Made by a program: the position numbers and the translations under genes. Of a DNA stretch of 43,757 bases, positions 24,093 to 40,116 are shown piece after piece. The stretch is from Escherichia phage vB_EcoS_FP. The stretch lies in sequence record MT682706.1. One strand, written 5' to 3'. A model generated the notes under the pieces. That model saw only the letters and a list, made by a program, of their open reading frames with translations. It was not told the origin of the DNA and ran no database searches. Within the stretch, counting starts at the first letter, position 1; every line of letters begins with the position of its first letter.

Positions 24093-25028
24093 TTAATACA
24101 TATCAGGAAGGTAAGGAAGTGGCATTGATATTGTTACGTCAGGCCTATTTCCTATCTCGTATCTAACAATCCTTGATCCCGTGCCAGATCTAACATACCC
24201 ATTGCTCATTACGATTCCTTTGTTTCTCAACTCCTTATATGCTCGTATTGCCCTTGTGTTAAACCCACATCTGAGTATTGGGAAGTAAGATTCGCCAATG
24301 TACTGATTGCTACCTGATAGGTTTATGAATCCAGAAACAACCAATGGCCTAGTTACGGTCGACAGCGTACAAACACCATTTGAATTAAATATGTTTAATC
24401 CAGGACCTGGCGTTGGTGCTACCATCTGAAATATAAGAAGGTCCATAGTTACACTTCCTGGAGTGTCACCAGTATCTTCCGTATTTATGTTTGTGCATAC
24501 CAGCTGGTTACTACCATTGTATTCAACTGATACGCCGGAGTTGTTCCACTTTCCAAACGGTATACCATAAATTGGCAGTGTGTATGTGTTGGTGAAAGAT
24601 ATTCTCTGAGCAAACTTGCATACTAATAGCCTGTCAGTGGTGGTTATAGAAGTAAAGTCAGTACTGTCAGTAACGTAAATACCCTGGCCTGTAGATGCTC
24701 TTAGTACCTCAACAACAGTACCAGAAAATTGAGTTATACGGTCAGAATATCCATTCTCATAACCAATCGATATTGTTCCGCTTGATGCTGTTGATGAGAA
24801 TCCATTTATGTAGTAAATCTCAACACCTCTATCAAGCTCAAATGAGTATGCGCCATTGTTAGGTATAAGGAACCTTGACGCTCCTTCATTACCCTGAATT
24901 GAAAAATTTTTGCTAAATCCACCACTGGAGACGTTGAAGTTACCAGCGAAGTTTAAAGCACGCATCCCTGCGGTTATTGTCATTGGCTTTCTTCCGTCAT
25001 TGAGGTCTATATAAATACCTTGAGTCAT
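24093..25028 (-). CDS. putative receptor-binding protein (311 aa)
   Basis: Minus-strand gene convergent with J; start ATG overlaps lipoprotein stop (TAATG) with AAGGAG RBS; Ser/Thr/Gly/Asn-rich. Confidence 0.5.
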   Translation of the reverse strand: MTQGIYIDLNDGRKPMTITAGMRALNFAGNFNVSSGGFSKNFSIQGNEGASRFLIPNNGAYSFELDRGVEIYYINGFSSTASSGTISIGYENGYSDRITQFSGTVVEVLRASTGQGIYVTDSTDFTSITTTDRLLVCKFAQRISFTNTYTLPIYGIPFGKWNNSGVSVEYNGSNQLVCTNINTEDTGDTPGSVTMDLLIFQMVAPTPGPGLNIFNSNGVCTLSTVTRPLVVSGFINLSGSNQYIGESYFPILRCGFNTRAIRAYKELRNKGIVMSNGYVRSGTGSRIVRYEIGNRPDVTISMPLPYLPDMY

Positions 25029-25258
25029 TAATTCCACTCCTTAGAACCATAATCACGAACAGATCCGCTGGAGCCTTTAATACCATCGTAGCGAATGTCA
25101 ATTTCACCAGCCGAAACTACTACGCCACCTTTCCATTTAGCTACGCACACGCCGTTTGAGGACGCTGCACACCAACCATCCGGGCGGGGAGCTGATGAAC
25201 AACCAACCGTCATGATTACTGCCGCTGCGATGATTGGTAATTTGATTAAGTTAGTCAT
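25028..25258 (-). CDS. lipoprotein, candidate superinfection-exclusion (Llp/Cor-like)
   Basis: Signal peptide plus lipobox MTVGCSS; 76 aa; adjacent to putative receptor-binding protein gene; driven by phage promoter module. Confidence 0.6.
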
Positions 25259-25282
25259 TTTTAAATCCTTAGTAAGTGCGTT

Positions 25283-25344
25283 TCGTTTCGATGAACTAAT
25301 AATACAACCGTCGGTGCGGAATGTCTTTAGCTATTCGTGCTATT
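25283..25344 (-). promoter_or_regulatory. phage-specific promoter-like module driving lipoprotein/RBP operon
   Basis: Minus strand: AATAGCACGAATAGCTAAAG ... TATTATTAGTTCATCGAAACGAAACG. Confidence 0.5.
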
Positions 25345-25720
25345 GTATACGCGTAACCAATGTAACTCGATGTATACAATCTCATCCGCGAAAAATGATA
25401 TACGCGCTGTTACGGCAATTTACGCATTGGTTACATTAAAATATCTATATATATCAACCTTTTACTCTTATTATTATTATTATATATATTACTGTGTATA
25501 TCATGTAACTACTTCTATAGAGTGTTCCGGTTATAATTTTAATATCATGTGGATTTATACAGTATTGCGTGGCAGCTATACCAATGCACCCCCTGCAAGA
25601 AACGGTATACACGATATACACGATGGTTACATTGAGCTATAGCTGGGCTGAGATGCCAAAAAGCGTAACTAGTACCAATACCTACACGGAATTACAGTAA
25701 TTCGCACGTAAACTTAATAA
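25345..25720. repeat. AT-rich non-coding control region B (homologous to region A); (TTA)n microsatellite; TACGCNNTGGTTACAT iteron-like sites
   Basis: No ORF with coding signal; shared blocks with 247-540. Confidence 0.7.
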
Positions 25721-26228: not shown

Positions 26229-27212
26229 ATGACATTTACCGTATACACACGAGAAGAGCTATCAAACTCGGAGTACCACGCTGAAACTGACCACATCTCA
26301 GGTAGCTCACTTGTCGAGATTATTCAGGGTTCACCAGCTAAGTGGAAGTTCAAGCAGCGCAATAATGACAGCAGGGCGCTTAAGTTTGGCACGCTGAGTC
26401 ACACTTACATCCTGGAAGGTGACATGTTTGATAAAAAATACCTGCGAGCAACAGACCTTGATGCAATTGAAGGCTTAATTACAAGCCAGGCTGGATTAGC
26501 AGCAGCTCTGAAAAAAGTTGGTGTAGCTGGCACGTCAGGGAAGGGGTATAGCGAGCTAGTAGAGATGATGTATCGCTCTGGCGAGGATTGGGATGTTAAA
26601 TGGTTAATTGAGCAGCAGGAGAGCGCACAGGCTCTTATAGAGGGTAAGGAGCTAGTTAGCGCAGAAGACTACGACAAAGTGGTGGCGATGCGCGAGGTTC
26701 TTTGCAATATTCCGGCTTACAATGCGATCATTAATAGCGAGACAGCACAAAAAGAGCTATCAATATTCGGCGAGATTCTAGGTGATGAAGATAATCCCGG
26801 TGTCGGCGTTAAGATTCGAATCGACCATGTTGATGTTGTTGATGGTGTTGTTTATATCACAGATTACAAGACGACAGCAGACGCAAGCCCTGAAGGATTC
26901 GGTAAGTCAGCATTCAAACATGGATACCTTGCAAAAATGGCTCTTCAGCGCGATCTGTTTGTGAAGGCATTCAACGAGAAGAGAAAGGTTGTTGTGAGAT
27001 TGCTAGCCCAGGAGAAGGTGGAGCCATACCTACCAATGTCTTACACGCTAACAGATGAGCAGCTTCGCATTGGACGACTACAATACCTTGAAGCACTTGC
27101 CACTTACAAAAAGTGCAAGGAACTAGATATCTGGCCTGGCTACTCGAATGGCATTACAGAGCAAGAGCTATTAGTTCCTGAGTGGGCTATTAAACAGTAT
27201 AAGGAAATCTAA
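26229..27212 (+). CDS. PD-(D/E)xK family exonuclease (YqaJ/lambda Exo-like)
   Basis: Block IRIDHVD...VYITDYKTT resembles the D..(D/E)xK nuclease core; position upstream of ERF and SSB. Confidence 0.55.
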   Translation: MTFTVYTREELSNSEYHAETDHISGSSLVEIIQGSPAKWKFKQRNNDSRALKFGTLSHTYILEGDMFDKKYLRATDLDAIEGLITSQAGLAAALKKVGVAGTSGKGYSELVEMMYRSGEDWDVKWLIEQQESAQALIEGKELVSAEDYDKVVAMREVLCNIPAYNAIINSETAQKELSIFGEILGDEDNPGVGVKIRIDHVDVVDGVVYITDYKTTADASPEGFGKSAFKHGYLAKMALQRDLFVKAFNEKRKVVVRLLAQEKVEPYLPMSYTLTDEQLRIGRLQYLEALATYKKCKELDIWPGYSNGITEQELLVPEWAIKQYKEI

Positions 27213-27260
27213 ATAGCACTTTTTGTTAAAACGAAATGTATGTTTCTCGCTATATTTGAA
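27212..27260 (+). promoter_or_regulatory. phage-specific promoter-like module (variant)
   Basis: AATAGCACTTTTTGTTAAAA, 22 nt, TATATTTG. Confidence 0.45.
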
Positions 27261-27283
27261 AACACACAAAATACAAATAAGGA

Positions 27284-27739
27284 TTGATTATGTTAAAATT
27301 AGAGCACGTCAATTTCCCAATCACGTTTAACAGTCATGGAAATGGTGAGATTACTTTCAACACAAAAGATTATGGGTTGTGGGCAGATGGTGAAGTTTCC
27401 ACTATTGACCTGGATCATTTCATTAAACAACACAACATAAAGAACCCCAATAACTCACGCAAAAAAGATTACTATTACTACAGTATTAGTAATGAACAGA
27501 ATACACACAATACATCTATACAGTATGCTCCGATCGAGAATATGCCAATTGGAGCAACTTTAAAAGGTGTGCAGCTTGATGTTGAATCATGGTTAGAGAT
27601 TACCATAGAGCCTAAATCAATAGAGGTGTGCGAAGATGTAGTAAAACTTACATCACATCACGGCACCATTGGTAATAAGACCGAAAATCGTGGAATCAGC
27701 ATTAAGCGCGGAACGCTTGTCCGCTACGATGTTAAATGA
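27284..27739 (+). CDS. hypothetical protein (151 aa), cassette flanked by promoter modules
   Basis: ORF track; RBS AAGGA. Confidence 0.55.
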   Translation: MIMLKLEHVNFPITFNSHGNGEITFNTKDYGLWADGEVSTIDLDHFIKQHNIKNPNNSRKKDYYYYSISNEQNTHNTSIQYAPIENMPIGATLKGVQLDVESWLEITIEPKSIEVCEDVVKLTSHHGTIGNKTENRGISIKRGTLVRYDVK

Positions 27740-27787
27740 TAATGATCGCATAGCTTGGTTTTTCCTAAGTCGCATAAAGGTGATGGT

Positions 27788-27840
27788 AAATAGCACGAAT
27801 TGCTAAAGCAATGTGGGATAGCTGATGTATAGTTACCCCA
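27788..27840 (+). promoter_or_regulatory. phage-specific promoter-like module
   Basis: AATAGCACGAATTGCTAAAG, 22 nt, TATAGTTACCCCATCAACAACGAACGAGG. Confidence 0.55.
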
Positions 27841-27862
27841 TCAACAACGAACGAGGTTAAAG

Positions 27863-28513
27863 ATGCAAATTTCAGAATCATGCAAGTCAATTTTAAACGC
27901 GCTACACACTGCTAAATCGCTATTTGCGAAGGCTGAAAAATCTAAGCAGAACTATCACTTAAAGAATAAGTACGCAACCTTAGAAGACGTATTGGCGGCC
28001 GTTGAGCCTGGTTTAGATGAGTGTGGTTTGGTTATGTTCCAGAGTGTGCTTGATGACGAACATTCGAATCGCATGAAGGTTGAGACAAAGCTGTTCCATG
28101 CGGAGTCAGGCGAATGGGTTAGCTTCTTAATGATTGTACCAATCAGCAAGAATGATGCTCAAGGTTACGGCTCAGCTTTAACATACGCTCGACGATACGG
28201 AATCACAGCGGCACTAGGTCTTAGCCAGGCAGATGATGATGGCAATCTGGCAGCGAAAGGCGTAAAAGACTTTAAACGAGAGCTTGAGAAATGTAACGCA
28301 TTGGATGAGCTTCGTAACGTATGGAAAGAGGCAAAACAATCACTTGATGCGGCAGGATGGAAGGTTTTTGAACCACACATTATTGAGCGCAAGGCAGAAA
28401 TCGAAGCTAATGCAATGACTGGCTTTAACCCAGCCACACCTAAGAAAGTTGCAGAAAAAAGTAGTGATAAAGAAAAGAATGAAGTAGAATCACAACAAAT
28501 CGACACGTTCTAA
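27863..28513 (+). CDS. erf: ERF-family single-strand annealing protein
   Basis: ERF-like block YATLEDVLAAVEPGL...ALTYARRYGITAALGL; position next to SSB. Confidence 0.7.
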   Translation: MQISESCKSILNALHTAKSLFAKAEKSKQNYHLKNKYATLEDVLAAVEPGLDECGLVMFQSVLDDEHSNRMKVETKLFHAESGEWVSFLMIVPISKNDAQGYGSALTYARRYGITAALGLSQADDDGNLAAKGVKDFKRELEKCNALDELRNVWKEAKQSLDAAGWKVFEPHIIERKAEIEANAMTGFNPATPKKVAEKSSDKEKNEVESQQIDTF

Positions 28514-28555: not shown

Positions 28556-28972
28556 ATGCACGTAATTACTGGTCAGATTCGCCGCGCTCCATTCACTAAA
28601 GAAGGTCAAAACGCTAACGGTAACTGGAAAATGTTCGCGGTTGATTTGAGTGAGAGATACAAGGATAAAGATGGGCAAGCTCAGTACACCAACTACCGCG
28701 CTGTGCTTTTCGCTAAAGAGTCTATGCTGGATTGGTATAACGAAGCATTTCAGGAGGGTAAGGTTGTTAGCTTAAGTTCCGAGAGCTTGTCGGTTGATGT
28801 TCGAGATAAAGATGGAAAGACCTACGTAACAGTCAATATGAACAATCCACGACTTGAGTTTAGTCAGCGTGGTGACTCACAGCCGCAGCAAAATCAGCAA
28901 CCACAGCAGCAGCATCGACAGCCCCAGCAGCCACAGCATCAAAGTCAATTCAACGATGATATCCCCTTCTGA
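28556..28972 (+). CDS. ssb: single-stranded DNA-binding protein
   Basis: OB-fold-sized N-terminus, Q/P-rich linker, acidic C-terminal tail DDIPF. Confidence 0.75.
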   Translation: MHVITGQIRRAPFTKEGQNANGNWKMFAVDLSERYKDKDGQAQYTNYRAVLFAKESMLDWYNEAFQEGKVVSLSSESLSVDVRDKDGKTYVTVNMNNPRLEFSQRGDSQPQQNQQPQQQHRQPQQPQHQSQFNDDIPF

Positions 28973-29008: not shown

Positions 29009-31525
29009 TTAAACATAGCTGTTTACAAAAGTAATTTTTCCTCCAGGTCTTTTATATGAGTAGGAGTAGTTCTTATTCTCAGGAAGAATAATATTAGGTG
29101 AACTATAAGACAAGGAAAGAAAAGGAGCATCAAACAGGTATTCGTTTTCCGTCATTATTGCGTATGTTGAACTTAGTGAGCTATTGAATCTAACAGATGA
29201 ACCAATTAAAAACCTTGTAGATGAGCCAATCAATCTTATTGCCGATAACTCATCAGTTCTTGGATTAACACCCCACTCATCAATAGTGCAGCAATCAACT
29301 GATCCACTAGAGTTTCTTAGTCTAAAGGCGTGCCCATTAATACCATTTATAACACCACTAGAAAAAGCAATTGAATTACAGTTGTAAGCATCAAGAAAAA
29401 CATCAGTTCTTGATGTTGGTGTTGAGTACGAGCCCTTACCTAAAGCGTCGAAGCTACTACATACAATCCTATCCGCATTTACAGCTTTTATGCAAACCAT
29501 GTTTGACTCAATAGTTGTCATTGAGTGAACAAAGTGAGCGTTTGAAATTTGAACACCAGAAACCCTCCTTGTGTCATTTCCAGATATTAGAAGTATTGGA
29601 ACTGACGAATTTGATGTATTTGTTGTTTCACCGATGTATATGTTTGACATGGCTGTGTTTATATGATTAGTTTCATCATCTTGCGGCTCAATAGCTATAG
29701 CTCCGACATCCATACCCCCATTGCAAAACAAATTGTTTACCCTGTTACCTCCAGCGGAAAGTCTAAGAGGTACAGATCCGCCATAAATTTCGACCGTATC
29801 AATAACACTATCAGAGTAAACCCTAATTCCACCACCCGAAGCGAATTTTGCAGGGTCTGATATATCCGTTGCATTACAGTAAATTCTCTCAAATCTTGAT
29901 AGCCCCTGACCTGAATATATAAACCAAGTATTGAATCGATTCCCTGATAAATCCCTATACTCCCATCCACCTCCAGATTCATGAAGTATAGCGTGCTGAC
30001 AAGACCATTCACCATCAAATGAAATTCCCTCAAACTTAACTGCGTCTACTCCACTAAGTCCTTTATTTGATGTGAATATTGATCTTTGATTTGGTGTGGC
30101 TGGTTTAATTATCGTCGACCCTAAATAAGCCTGATTCCCACCCTTTCCAAGAAATTTAACCCCAGAAGCTACTTGGTTTAGCTCGATCTCCGATGTTCTT
30201 ATCACTCCAGCAGGAAACTCCAAAACCTTAACCCCTGCGTAAATGGCTTTAATTATTGCATCCTTGTTATCAGCAACATGTACTCCGCCACCGTAAGATT
30301 CAATCTTTGATGATATTGGCCTTAGCTTCCATTTTTCATCTAATTCTGGAGATGATGGAAGCACCGAGCCTTCAGTTATCTGCCCATCATATGAGTATTG
30401 ATTACCATTGTAATTAAATGACTGATAGTTTGATGTCAGCTTCTTACCTTGCGTGAAATCCCCAGATGAAAAGTACCCATTAATCTTATTAATAGCAGCA
30501 TCAACATCTTGCTTCGAGTAAACATCAAGATTAGTTCTTGCTAATGACTTATTTGCAACATCAGAGAGATTCAATGACTTTTGAAAAGTCTCATTTTTTG
30601 AGTAAACATCAAGCAAACCCCTAACCCTTATAGCAGAAGAGCCACCAGCAGCAGCATCTCCACCTGGAACGCTTAGAAGCTCCCTTACATAAAAACTCCT
30701 AGAACCAGTAGCTCCAGTAAAGGTAATTTCCGCAACCCTAAAAACTGCGTTTGAGGCTGTAGAAGGAGAAACTCTTACTACGTTACTTCCATTAATACCG
30801 CGCGTCGCAAGAACATCAATACAAATAGTAGTGTTTGTCGCCGGGAACATTGAGCTTAAGTCTGCTGGAATGTTAACCATGTTGTCAATTCTGCACTGGT
30901 AACTACCACCTGAATAAAATTGCATTGTCTGCCAGTCAAGTGATCCTAGCAGTGGTGTTGTAGTACTTCCTATGCCGTGTTCTGCAAAGTAAGCCACTGC
31001 TGCGGTATTCCCAGCTGCATTTATTGCAGCAACGGTTCTTTTGTATGAGTTCTGTGCATTATTGCTGGCGCCAACGGCAGTTGATGCGCTTTCTGCGGCA
31101 GCAACCTGACTAGCAAGAGCCTCCGCAGCTCCAGTAGTGGATTGATTTGCAAGTTTCTCGAAGCGAGGCCAGTCGAAAGTGTCTTGACCAATAAATTGCA
31201 GCAATCCTTCGATGGATGTCTCCTTGGACTGGTAGTAACGCAAAGTCTCTGCTACATCCTGAGCCAACCCCTGAACGGTAATTCCATCGTGCGCAAGAAT
31301 TGCATAACCAGTTCCTGCAGGAACAGTTTCAGAATTAGGGTTGTAAACATTAATCTGCGTGTCGCTAATGATTTCAGAGATGGTGTAAATCTTTAGCGGG
31401 TTAGTTTTGAAAATGATAGTTGCACCTACGCGAATCAGTGTAAGCGGTGCTTTCCATGTTGTCCCCACGCCAGTTACCTCGCCAGTTGCGGCCAGCGACG
31501 CTGTTCCTAAGTCATAAATTGCCAT
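29009..31525 (-). CDS. tailspike / lateral tail fibre (beta-helix, candidate polysaccharide depolymerase)
   Basis: About 838 aa from ATG 31525 (RBS GGAGAC); conserved-looking N-terminal anchor, Ala-rich coiled segment, long Ser/Gly/Asn/Thr-rich repeat-like region. Confidence 0.65.
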   Translation of the reverse strand: MAIYDLGTASLAATGEVTGVGTTWKAPLTLIRVGATIIFKTNPLKIYTISEIISDTQINVYNPNSETVPAGTGYAILAHDGITVQGLAQDVAETLRYYQSKETSIEGLLQFIGQDTFDWPRFEKLANQSTTGAAEALASQVAAAESASTAVGASNNAQNSYKRTVAAINAAGNTAAVAYFAEHGIGSTTTPLLGSLDWQTMQFYSGGSYQCRIDNMVNIPADLSSMFPATNTTICIDVLATRGINGSNVVRVSPSTASNAVFRVAEITFTGATGSRSFYVRELLSVPGGDAAAGGSSAIRVRGLLDVYSKNETFQKSLNLSDVANKSLARTNLDVYSKQDVDAAINKINGYFSSGDFTQGKKLTSNYQSFNYNGNQYSYDGQITEGSVLPSSPELDEKWKLRPISSKIESYGGGVHVADNKDAIIKAIYAGVKVLEFPAGVIRTSEIELNQVASGVKFLGKGGNQAYLGSTIIKPATPNQRSIFTSNKGLSGVDAVKFEGISFDGEWSCQHAILHESGGGWEYRDLSGNRFNTWFIYSGQGLSRFERIYCNATDISDPAKFASGGGIRVYSDSVIDTVEIYGGSVPLRLSAGGNRVNNLFCNGGMDVGAIAIEPQDDETNHINTAMSNIYIGETTNTSNSSVPILLISGNDTRRVSGVQISNAHFVHSMTTIESNMVCIKAVNADRIVCSSFDALGKGSYSTPTSRTDVFLDAYNCNSIAFSSGVINGINGHAFRLRNSSGSVDCCTIDEWGVNPRTDELSAIRLIGSSTRFLIGSSVRFNSSLSSTYAIMTENEYLFDAPFLSLSYSSPNIILPENKNYSYSYKRPGGKITFVNSYV

Positions 31526-31591
31526 TGTGTAAAGTCTCCATTTGTAAAATAGCACTAATTGCTAAGTTGGATTGTAGCATCTTTCAGGCAT

Positions 31592-32559: not shown

Positions 32560-32612
32560 AAGGCACTATACATAATGCACAGTGCCATTGTTTATCAATT
32601 CGTGCTATTTCC
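32560..32612 (-). promoter_or_regulatory. phage-specific promoter-like module (minus strand)
   Basis: Minus strand: AAATAGCACGAATTGATAAA, 22 nt, TATAGTGCC. Confidence 0.5.
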
Positions 32613-38008: not shown

Positions 38009-38482
38009 ATGATTTACGTATTTGATATCGATGGAACTATAGCTAATAATGAGCATAGAAGTCACCTCTTGCCATCCAGCGACCTTCACTTGACTTCAAG
38101 TTGGAAGGATTACAATAAAGCCTGTTCTGGAGACTCACCAATAATTCCAATGATAAAAATGATGAATGCTTTAGCTGAGTCATCTCAAGTTTACATAATG
38201 ACCTCAAGAAGTGATGAAGTTGAATGGAGAACCCTTGAGTGGCTTCAGGATAATGATGTTGAGTATGATTCGATATACATGAGAAGTCGACATGACAACC
38301 GAAAAGATTACAAAATAAAAGAGGAATGGCTCAATGAAATCAGTGGTGGCTATAAAGGCAATGTGGTTATTTTTGAAGATAACCCAAAAGTAATTAAGCA
38401 CCTAAGAAGTCGCGGATACACAGTTATGGCTGTATGTGAATATGAAGAACTACCTAAAGATTGCGAATCTCACGGAGAATGA
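38009..38482 (+). CDS. HAD-superfamily phosphatase (5' nucleotidase / PNK-phosphatase-like)
   Basis: N-terminal DxDGT motif (VFDIDGTIA); 157 aa. Confidence 0.6.
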   Translation: MIYVFDIDGTIANNEHRSHLLPSSDLHLTSSWKDYNKACSGDSPIIPMIKMMNALAESSQVYIMTSRSDEVEWRTLEWLQDNDVEYDSIYMRSRHDNRKDYKIKEEWLNEISGGYKGNVVIFEDNPKVIKHLRSRGYTVMAVCEYEELPKDCESHGE

Positions 38483-39083: not shown

Positions 39084-39284
39084 ATGAACCAAGCGAGGAA
39101 AAACAAAATGACTAAAATGATTTACTGCACCAAGAACAACTCCAAGACCCTGCCATTTACTGTTAACCAGCCGTACAACGCAGAGTACCAGGGCGATGGA
39201 TACTACAAGATTTACGGAGACGATATGACGCACATCTTAGCGCCGATTGATGGTTCGTTAGTTGAATTTATTATCGCTGACTAG
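39084..39284 (+). CDS. hypothetical protein (66 aa)
   Basis: RBS GAGGAAAAAC; ORF track. Confidence 0.55.
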   Translation: MNQARKNKMTKMIYCTKNNSKTLPFTVNQPYNAEYQGDGYYKIYGDDMTHILAPIDGSLVEFIIAD

Positions 39285-39630: not shown

Positions 39631-40116
39631 ATGAAGCAGAAGCTGCTAATTAGCGCGGCTACGGCTGCGGCAATATACATCGCAGCGCCGCTTATTGAGC
39701 TCGTTGAGGGTGTGGAGAACAAGCCTTACATGGACATTGCTGGAATCCCTACAGTTTGTTCAGGTATTACTGGACCTGACGTTGTTTGGGGTAAAACTTA
39801 CAGTAACAGGGAGTGCCGGAACCTACTGGAGAAGCACATCCAGATTCATGCTAAGTATGTTCAGGATGCGGTTACCTACCCAATTGCACGGCAGACAAGG
39901 GCAGCGCTAATCAGCTTTAGCTACAACGTTGGTGGTCATGCCATGAAGAACTCAACGGCAATTAGACTTATCAATCAGGGTAAAGTGGAGCAGGGTTGTA
40001 AGGCTCTTGGGATGTGGAATAAAGCTACCGTTAACGGCAAAAAGGTTATTGTTAAGGGTTTGGTTAATCGCAGGAACGAGGAGGTTAAGCTATGCTTAAG
40101 TGGATTGCAGCGTTAG
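39631..40116 (+). CDS. SAR endolysin (lysozyme, P21 R-like)
   Basis: N-terminal SAR-like hydrophobic segment; blocks KPYMDIAGIPTVCSGIT and SFSYNVGGHA recalled to resemble phage P21 R lysozyme. Confidence 0.85.
   Translation: MKQKLLISAATAAAIYIAAPLIELVEGVENKPYMDIAGIPTVCSGITGPDVVWGKTYSNRECRNLLEKHIQIHAKYVQDAVTYPIARQTRAALISFSYNVGGHAMKNSTAIRLINQGKVEQGCKALGMWNKATVNGKKVIVKGLVNRRNEEVKLCLSGLQR

Follow-up and report, generated by a model that had tools for sequence, protein, structure and literature searches.

A repeat-bounded accessory cassette between the exonuclease and erf genes of Escherichia phage vB_EcoS_FP

Sequence record MT682706.1 of Escherichia phage vB_EcoS_FP (43,757 nucleotides, the whole of which is called the window below) is that of a T1-like phage of the Drexlerviridae, Braunvirinae. 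Between its genes for a PD-(D/E)XK exonuclease (exo) and an ERF-family single-strand annealing protein (erf) lies a small plus-strand gene at 27290..27739. Its match to phrog_7116, its homologues, their alignment and the ratio of nonsynonymous to synonymous substitution rates (dN/dS) identify it as the coding sequence of a 149-amino-acid (aa) accessory protein of the phrog_7116 / T1 ORF70 family. Positions 27211-27808 form an optional cassette bounded by repeats. In the favoured reading, given a somewhat better than even chance, this cassette would be gained and lost by recombination between the repeats, would be transcribed early, and would encode a putative counter-defence, host-takeover or exclusion protein.

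Variable content of the exo-erf gap

Five states of the gap between exo and erf were found in Braunvirinae. The gap is empty in IME253, BEK6 and 12210III, where exo is followed by a single repeat module and then erf. In T145P1 it holds only a Dam-type methyltransferase. Two metagenomic contigs have Dam and a 169-aa homologue of the gene; in JeanPiccard, Dam is accompanied by a remnant truncated to 71 aa and by a small unrelated open reading frame (ORF). The homologue alone is found in the window and in one contig. The gene is accessory in Braunvirinae, being present, absent or truncated among close relatives. The initial annotation had anticipated that relatives might carry different genes at this position, and the synteny comparison bears this out. 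The gap looks like a hotspot, or permissive insertion site, because the unrelated Dam methyltransferase fills the same space in other phages.

Of the 100 records of related phages with a match to the region, not one holds at least 80% of it, and a tblastn search of the phage collection with the protein gave the JeanPiccard remnant as the only match in Braunvirinae. That remnant (positions 2590-2805 of related locus L001, 71 aa) is separated from erf by the small unrelated ORF. The endpoint of the JeanPiccard deletion lies at a short AACGAAC-type homology (GTAACGAAC...) to the conserved erf leader AACGAACGAGGTTAAA.

Repeats as cassette boundaries

Both flanks of the gene carry the Drexlerviridae 21-nucleotide (nt) intergenic repeat, with the consensus aaATAGCACnnnTTGnTAAAA. 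The sequence AAATAGCAC is present at 27211 and at 27788, one on each side of the gene. The extended pattern ATAGCACNNNTTGNTAA occurs in 17 copies in the window (1.72 expected), a number reached in none of 100 shuffles. The left copy, AAATAGCACTTTTTGTTAAAA, found by the pattern scan at 27211..27231 (+), is of a 'T-type' and forms the left cassette boundary; homology to relatives starts exactly here whatever the upstream gene. The TAA stop codon of the exonuclease, at 27210-27212, abuts it. The right copy, AAATAGCACGAATTGCTAAAG, at 27788..27808 (+), is of a 'G-type', forms the right cassette boundary and belongs to the module found ahead of erf in every relative.

All junctions fall at the repeat. 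In every gap state the TAA stop of the upstream gene, either exo or Dam, is directly followed by ATAGCAC, and cassette homology begins exactly at that point, whether the upstream flank is the 3' end of exo or the 3' end of Dam. The cassette consists of one copy of the 21-nt repeat, a phased -10-like hexamer, a ribosome-binding site and the 149-aa gene, and it sits directly ahead of the repeat module that would normally drive erf. A crossover of the upstream T-type repeat with the downstream G-type repeat would excise the gene cleanly. The predicted product, exo-TAA-ATAGCAC-GAA-TTGCTAAA-erf, is identical to the arrangement in the 'empty' phages, which is the one that most relatives have. Gain and loss of the cassette probably proceed, judging from these junctions, by recombination between repeat modules.

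A second case of such recombination, independent of the exo-erf gap, can be read from a Tunavirus locus. Upstream of orf71 in locus L019 there is a chimeric module (2366-2440). When compared with L012 609-698 and L012 2365-2454, it corresponds in its left half to the L012 module at 609 and in its right half to the orf71 module at L012 2366, and the approximately 1.76 kb between those two L012 modules are absent from L019. The chimera is direct evidence that repeat modules have recombined with each other.

The gene also differs from its flanks in its rate of evolution. For the same genome pairs, synonymous divergence (dS) is 0.26-0.30 in the gene and 0.66-0.84 in exo and erf (1.32 in one pair), so that the gene has about a third of its neighbours' value. 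The dN/dS is 0.30-0.42 in the gene and 0.03-0.09 in the flanks, or 4-8 times that of the neighbouring core genes. At the nucleotide level, gene and flanks have a similar overall identity. A low dS and a high dN/dS at similar identity imply that the common ancestor of the gene is more recent than that of the flanks and that the protein has evolved faster. This pattern indicates lateral exchange of the gene. Base composition differs as well, with a GC content of 33-37% in the gene and 43-48% in the flanks.

The reading frame and its constraint

The initial annotation described a gene of 151 aa at 27284-27739, and the program-made ORF list does contain that frame on the plus strand with a TTG start. 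The frame exists, but its start and length almost certainly need correction. The sequence MLKLE is the N-terminus of 29/29 aligned homologues and also of every full-length phmmer match. A Shine-Dalgarno sequence, AGGA at 27280-27283 (+), lies 6 nt ahead of the ATG at 27290. Because all aligned homologues start with MLKLE and AGGA is found at this distance, the true coding sequence is most likely 27290-27739, with an ATG start and 149 aa rather than 151. A protein 100% identical to it has already been deposited in a viral structure library, where it is listed under Escherichia phage vB_EcoS_FP as hypothetical.

The 149-aa ORF is a real protein-coding gene under purifying selection. Its dN/dS is 0.30-0.42 among close homologues and 0.12-0.23 in comparison with Tunavirus SH2. 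Constraint is seen in the N-terminal and C-terminal domains alike (dN/dS 0.30, well below 1), and the ribosome-binding site is kept among homologues. The frame is intact, and the gene has been retained, at 83-99% identity, in several metagenomic lineages that are independent of each other.

Repeat modules and transcription

A 21-nt intergenic direct repeat with the consensus aaATAGCACnnnTTGnTAAAA is on record for phage TLS and was noted in the same study for T1, Rtp and Rogue1 (PMC11447400). The authors of the TLS study left the function of the repeat as a question, with a stoperator, an enhancer site or an UP-like element as candidates (PMC11447400). In the window, each copy that flanks the gene is followed by a phased hexamer. 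The -10-like hexamer TATATT at 27251..27256 (+), a putative -10, is found exactly 22 nt after TTGTTA and would place a transcription start near 27263. The -10-like hexamer TATAGT at 27828..27833 (+) follows TTGCTA after 22 nt and lies within an imperfect inverted repeat (TGGGATA ... TTACCCCA).

Of 124 distinct modules gathered in the window and at related loci, 100 share this phase, with exactly 22 nt between TTGnTA and a -10-like hexamer (TATAGT, TATAAT or TATATT). The full register, ATAGCAC-N3-TTGnTA-N22-hexamer, occurs in the window at 1704, 2215, 3150, 14102, 27213, 27790, 35596 and 39023 on the plus strand and at 32608, 42493 and 42927 on the minus strand. A conserved leader, CATCGAAACGA, is often found downstream of the repeat and hexamer. 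The repeat itself contains a 5-bp dyad, TAGCA-N5-TGCTA. If the hexamer is a -10, the dyad is centred near -42, where a class II activator site would lie.

The -10-like hexamer of many modules lies between the arms of a perfect inverted repeat of 6-9 bp. Examples are found in the window at 2215-2265, 32608-32558 (-) and 42493-42443 (-), and in loci L002 and L010-L023 (in L010, for example, at 2266, 3532, 4341 and 4861). The arms vary from module to module, and include GGGGTT/AACCCC, AAGGCCA/TGGCCTT, AGGGGAAT/ATTCCCCT, GGGATAAC/GTTATCCC and TGTGGTT/AACCACA. Stems of at least 6 bp are present in 9/28 sequence clusters of modules, with 1.24 expected and a maximum of 6 in 1000 shuffles. Arms that differ in this way amount to covariation, which points to a nucleic-acid hairpin and not to a palindrome recognized by a protein.

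A canonical sigma-70 reading of the modules was considered and rejected. There is no -10 at 16-18 nt after TTGnTA, no -35 at 17 nt before TATAGT, and no consistent TG of an extended -10.

Behind the gene there is a 48-nt cassette tail (27740..27787, +) that is conserved in locus L009 and partly in L007 and has no terminator. No terminator-like site was found within 27740-27862, where folding is no better than that of shuffled sequences (z = -0.30). Nor was any structured RNA found 3' of the ORF. Since no terminator follows the gene, any transcript of it runs on into erf. The initial annotation had regarded the gene as a self-contained cassette. This description fits its front end, where the gene is preceded by a repeat, a -10-like hexamer and a Shine-Dalgarno sequence, and fails at the back, where a terminator of its own is absent. 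Early transcription together with the recombination genes would result from the gene's own repeat-associated promoter and from read-through.

One further plus-strand repeat copy, at 31549-31565, runs into the start of the tail-fibre gene, which is encoded on the minus strand (29009-31555). This copy lacks a -10-like hexamer at +22 and is followed by a hairpin (AACCTCCCAAAGGAGGTT). It looks like an orphan or degenerate module.

Protein family and domain structure

A remote homology search left the gene without an assigned function, as the initial annotation had it. The sole family match is to phrog_7116 of the PHROGs collection, over the full length (E 1.9e-51, 175 bits), and this family has no functional annotation. 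In a set of 5.8 billion proteins, 90 homologues were detected, nearly all of them on phage-sized contigs of 44-51 kb, with phmmer matches down to 1e-14. An exhaustive profile search across 1.84 billion representatives led to 57 clusters, mostly of short phage-type proteins. Two weak profile matches, P0133 and P0144, were discarded as repeat-rich proteins unrelated to the family. A profile search of the PDB up to E 10 returned cytochrome c3 noise only. Literature searches on T1 ORF70, the PHROG identifier, Drexlerviridae transcription starts and a T1-like accessory-gene screen yielded nothing on the gene.

Homologues are found in 224 phage records, mainly of T1-like phages of Escherichia, Shigella, Salmonella and Citrobacter, T1 included. 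The T1 homologue is ORF70 (CPTT1_008, AAP49930.1), a hypothetical protein. Its gene is located between orf71 and orf69, upstream of the polynucleotide kinase (PNK) gene, in an array of small genes with no assigned function. The homologue adjoins orf71 in 16/16 Tunavirus-type loci with an upstream flank, and orf69 comes next in most of these, although not in L020 or L023. The protein of the window is 43% identical to T1 ORF70 and 49-54% identical to other Tunavirinae homologues. This range of 43-54% is that expected for ancient members of a family, which makes the gene an old one within it. The gene is stable in its synteny in Tunavirinae; in Braunvirinae it occupies a different locus and is sporadic. 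The T1-type order (orf71, homologue, orf69 ... PNK) is not found in the window or in L007-L009, where the gene has exo (or Dam) on one side and erf on the other; in the window, the PNK homologue is at 38009-38482. Homology does not depend on shared synteny, but the loci are different.

AlphaFold models of the protein are confident and have two domains joined by a low-confidence linker. The N-terminal domain (residues 1-66; 27290..27487, +) has a beta-beta-beta-alpha-beta arrangement with the motifs FPITF and HNxxNPxN, and fold comparison found no structural relative for it. The C-terminal domain (residues ~77-149; 27518..27736, +) is an SH3-like small beta-barrel and the most conserved part of the protein (IENMPxGATLKGVQ ... 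ISIKRGTLVRYxVK). Alignment and models agree that the 149-aa protein has the two-domain plan of the family, an FPITF...HNxxNPxN N-domain and an IENMP...KRGTLVRY barrel.

The domains are modular. The N-domain is duplicated in some relatives and replaced by, or fused to, other domains of no assigned function in others. The C-domain is also found by itself, or joined to an N-terminal part that comes from the upstream neighbour. For example, P0087 is a chimera of the N-terminal part of the Tunavirus upstream neighbour with the C-domain, consistent with a deletion between adjacent genes. No fusion partner of either domain has a known function. A MazG-like tail was suspected in P0123, but it was unsupported by Pfam. 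In L024-L026 (~2640-2870 and 3001-3555), a short gene with only the N-domain stands directly upstream of a full-length homologue of 185 aa, as a tandem paralogue of the N-domain.

Possible functions of the gene product

In the favoured reading, the product would be a soluble two-domain protein that binds a macromolecule of the host or of a rival phage, and it would stand outside the recombination machinery. The conserved SH3-like barrel might serve as the common binding module, and the fast-evolving, swappable N-domain might act as the specificity module. Counter-defence genes are enriched in variable accessory regions between core phage genes (bioRxiv 10.1101/2023.04.06.535777). A role in counter-defence, takeover or exclusion is favoured because of the patchy presence of the gene, its lateral exchange, the fast evolution of the protein, the low GC content of the gene, domain swapping, and neighbours that are either Dam or small genes, all of them usual in phage accessory genes that deal with host defences or rival phages. 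By analogy, the putative product is most likely an early host-interaction or counter-defence protein that would act through protein binding.

Several points weigh against this reading. The 'early' timing is assumed from position. The persistent synteny of the gene in Tunavirinae fits a more general role there, outside any arms race. The low dS may stem partly from constrained synonymous sites, the gene being AT-rich, and not from recent transfer. Searches of Pfam, NCBIfam, PADLOC and PDB sequences with the protein gave no match. Promoter activity of the repeat modules is a prediction from sequence. The initial annotation had placed promoter modules on both flanks, at 27212 and 27788; family repeats with phased hexamers are indeed present there, while a scan for canonical sigma-70 promoters detects neither module. 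Both are missed because the spacing between TTGnTA and the hexamer is 22 nt and not 16-18 nt.

A more specific proposal, put forward tentatively and with the odds clearly against it, is that proteins of the T1 ORF70 family are modular phage effectors of a new kind. The orphan N-domain would confer target specificity on a shared activity of the SH3-like domain, in the service of counter-defence or host takeover, and the repeats would act both as non-canonical promoters, dependent on an activator or on structure, and as recombination joints by which such effectors move from locus to locus and from phage to phage. The TAGCA-N5-TGCTA dyad would lie near -42, and the -10 hexamer would be presented in the covarying hairpin. 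If true, this proposal would answer the question of repeat function raised for phage TLS.

It is improbable, at roughly the level of an outside chance, that the protein binds RNA or ribosomes and so modulates translation or the fate of mRNA. The sole basis for this idea is a weak fold similarity, in that the best structural matches of the C-domain are SH3/Sm barrels of the translation type. No relation to translation proteins is seen at the sequence level, and on inspection of its sequence the protein is not markedly basic. For its function EF-P needs domains II and III together with a modified lysine in a loop, and the 149-aa protein has no counterpart of these domains or of the lysine. A relationship to the SH3-like barrels of translation proteins (EF-P domain I, eIF5A, L2) was looked for in sequence or profile similarity, or in a strong fold match with functional residues, and neither was found.

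Slightly less probable still is a role as an accessory factor of recombination. The protein might, for example, inhibit RecBCD or help Erf, and would then protect the ends of linear phage DNA or modulate Exo and Erf. Gam is encoded next to exo and bet in lambda, and Abc1, Abc2 and Arf next to erf in P22. The position of the gene, between exo and erf and upstream of the gene for single-stranded DNA-binding protein (ssb), might be taken to mirror that of Gam and Abc in lambdoid and P22 modules. Against this, the gene is missing from most Braunvirinae with the same exo-erf-ssb module, its Tunavirinae homologue is far from exo and erf, and the unrelated Dam methyltransferase occupies the same gap elsewhere. 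No solved structure is matched by sequence. In addition, Gam is all-helical, and the model of the 149-aa protein is beta-rich.

The gene is quite unlikely to be a decaying remnant that has lost its function in Braunvirinae and is heading for loss. Decay could account for the truncated JeanPiccard copy, for the loss of the gene from most relatives, and for a 60-nt in-frame linker deletion (20 residues) by which the window and L009 differ from the 169-aa form (27488-27517 in the window, as compared with ~3200-3260 in L007). The deletion is wholly confined to the low-confidence linker, the frame is intact, and dN/dS is 0.30 in both domains. The conserved ribosome-binding site and the retention of the gene at 83-99% identity in several independent metagenomic lineages likewise argue against decay.

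A conserved housekeeping or essential phage gene, isolated in appearance only, is the least probable alternative: homologues in 224 phage records, the conserved order of orf71 and the homologue in Tunavirus-type loci and the highly conserved C-domain would suit it, but the initial annotation had named essentiality across the lineage as what would count against an accessory role, and in Braunvirinae the gene is absent from IME253, BEK6, 12210III and T145P1 and truncated in JeanPiccard, all viable isolates, with an intact copy in 0/100 close relatives and the raised dN/dS (4-8 times that of neighbouring core genes) given above. For Braunvirinae this alternative is contradicted.

Relation to known systems

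The cassette of the window resembles the T1 ORF70 members of phrog_7116 in its full-length homology, in the same plan of N-domain, linker and C-domain, and in the repeat module ahead of the gene. Unlike T1 ORF70, it lies in the exo-erf gap and not between orf71 and orf69, its linker is 12-20 residues shorter, and it is sporadic rather than persistent in its subfamily. Membership of phrog_7116 / T1 ORF70 explains nothing mechanistically, as the family is without an assigned function.

In T4-type phages, PeSL cassettes have repeated promoter and stem-loop motifs that flank non-essential ORFs and mediate their insertion, deletion and replacement (PMC2839356, PMC4122927). The present arrangement is similar in that short repeated motifs, oriented along the direction of transcription, bracket a non-essential ORF, in that the junctions of indels and replacements between relatives fall in the motif, and in that many repeat modules have a stem-loop. 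It differs in motif sequence, in the 22-nt distance from TTGnTA to the -10-like hexamer, where a canonical sigma-70 spacing would be shorter, and in an inverted repeat that encloses that hexamer with no separate terminator. For PeSL, promoter and terminator activities and mini-circles have been shown experimentally.

The morons of lambdoid phages are extra genes between genes that are adjacent in relatives, with their own expression signal and a deviant composition. The gene of the window is like them in lying between exo and erf, which are adjacent in IME253, BEK6 and 12210III, and in having a deviant GC content and a putative upstream expression signal of its own. Unlike lambdoid morons, it has no terminator of its own, and it belongs to a virulent phage, with no role in lysogenic conversion.

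The repeats share consensus, orientation and the T and G subtypes with the 21-nt repeats of TLS. The TLS paper (PMC11447400) does not mention the fixed 22-nt phase, the hairpin with covarying arms or the part played as recombination joints, all of which are seen here. These features of the repeat module are more unusual than the gene itself.

A stand-alone SH3 protein (DUF7244) is an auxiliary part of the Drexlerviridae lysis module (PMC13164509). Like the C-domain described here, it is a small SH3-like barrel of T1-like phages and is variably present. Kinship with it was examined and rejected: the 149-aa protein has no match to Pfam DUF7244 (PF23896), gives no BLASTP alignment with the DUF7244 protein of the window, and is encoded at another locus. 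The window's own DUF7244 SH3 gene is at 39084-39284 (+; 5.3e-29), just upstream of a holin-like ORF and a lysozyme gene (39631-40116).

Taken alone, the gene is one more uncharacterised accessory phage gene, and gene shuffling of this kind is already known in phages, PeSL cassettes being an example. The exo-erf gap is of wider use as a natural polymorphism (empty, Dam, Dam with the homologue, the homologue alone) that provides ready, isogenic-like comparisons for host-range and defence phenotypes. The cassette boundaries offer concrete evidence for the 21-nt repeats of T1-like phages as joints of gene gain and loss, and for a constant distance between these repeats and a -10-like hexamer. Phages of the T1 type often contaminate laboratories and fermentations and are also candidates for therapy, and about half of their genes are unannotated. 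The gene offers a tractable and practically useful entry to their accessory gene pool.

Other features of the window

The region from exo to ssb is 83-87% identical to that of about 100 Drexlerviridae phages, all of them Braunvirinae (Rtpvirus, Veterinaerplatzvirus, BEK6, JeanPiccard). Pfam and PHROG profiles identify both neighbours of the gene, in agreement with their initial description as exonuclease and ERF genes. The upstream core gene, at 26229..27212 (+), encodes a PD-(D/E)XK exonuclease of the exo VIII / RecE-like type (Pfam DUF3799, PDDEXK-like, 1.3e-19; phrog_412, exonuclease VIII, 1.3e-96). The downstream core gene, for the ERF-family protein, is at 27863..28513 (+; Pfam ERF 2e-26, phrog_155 4e-47). 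The next gene after erf, identified by profile matches as ssb, is at 28556-28972.

Farther upstream, an AT-rich stretch (25260-25720, 34% GC) separates the rightward early operon from a divergent lipoprotein gene at 25028-25258 (-), which matches Pfam Phage_lipoprotein and is Cor-like. A minus-strand copy of the repeat, at 25343, faces this lipoprotein gene. The sole Rfam match in the window is a tRNA gene at 4244-4318 (+; RF00005, 55 bits).

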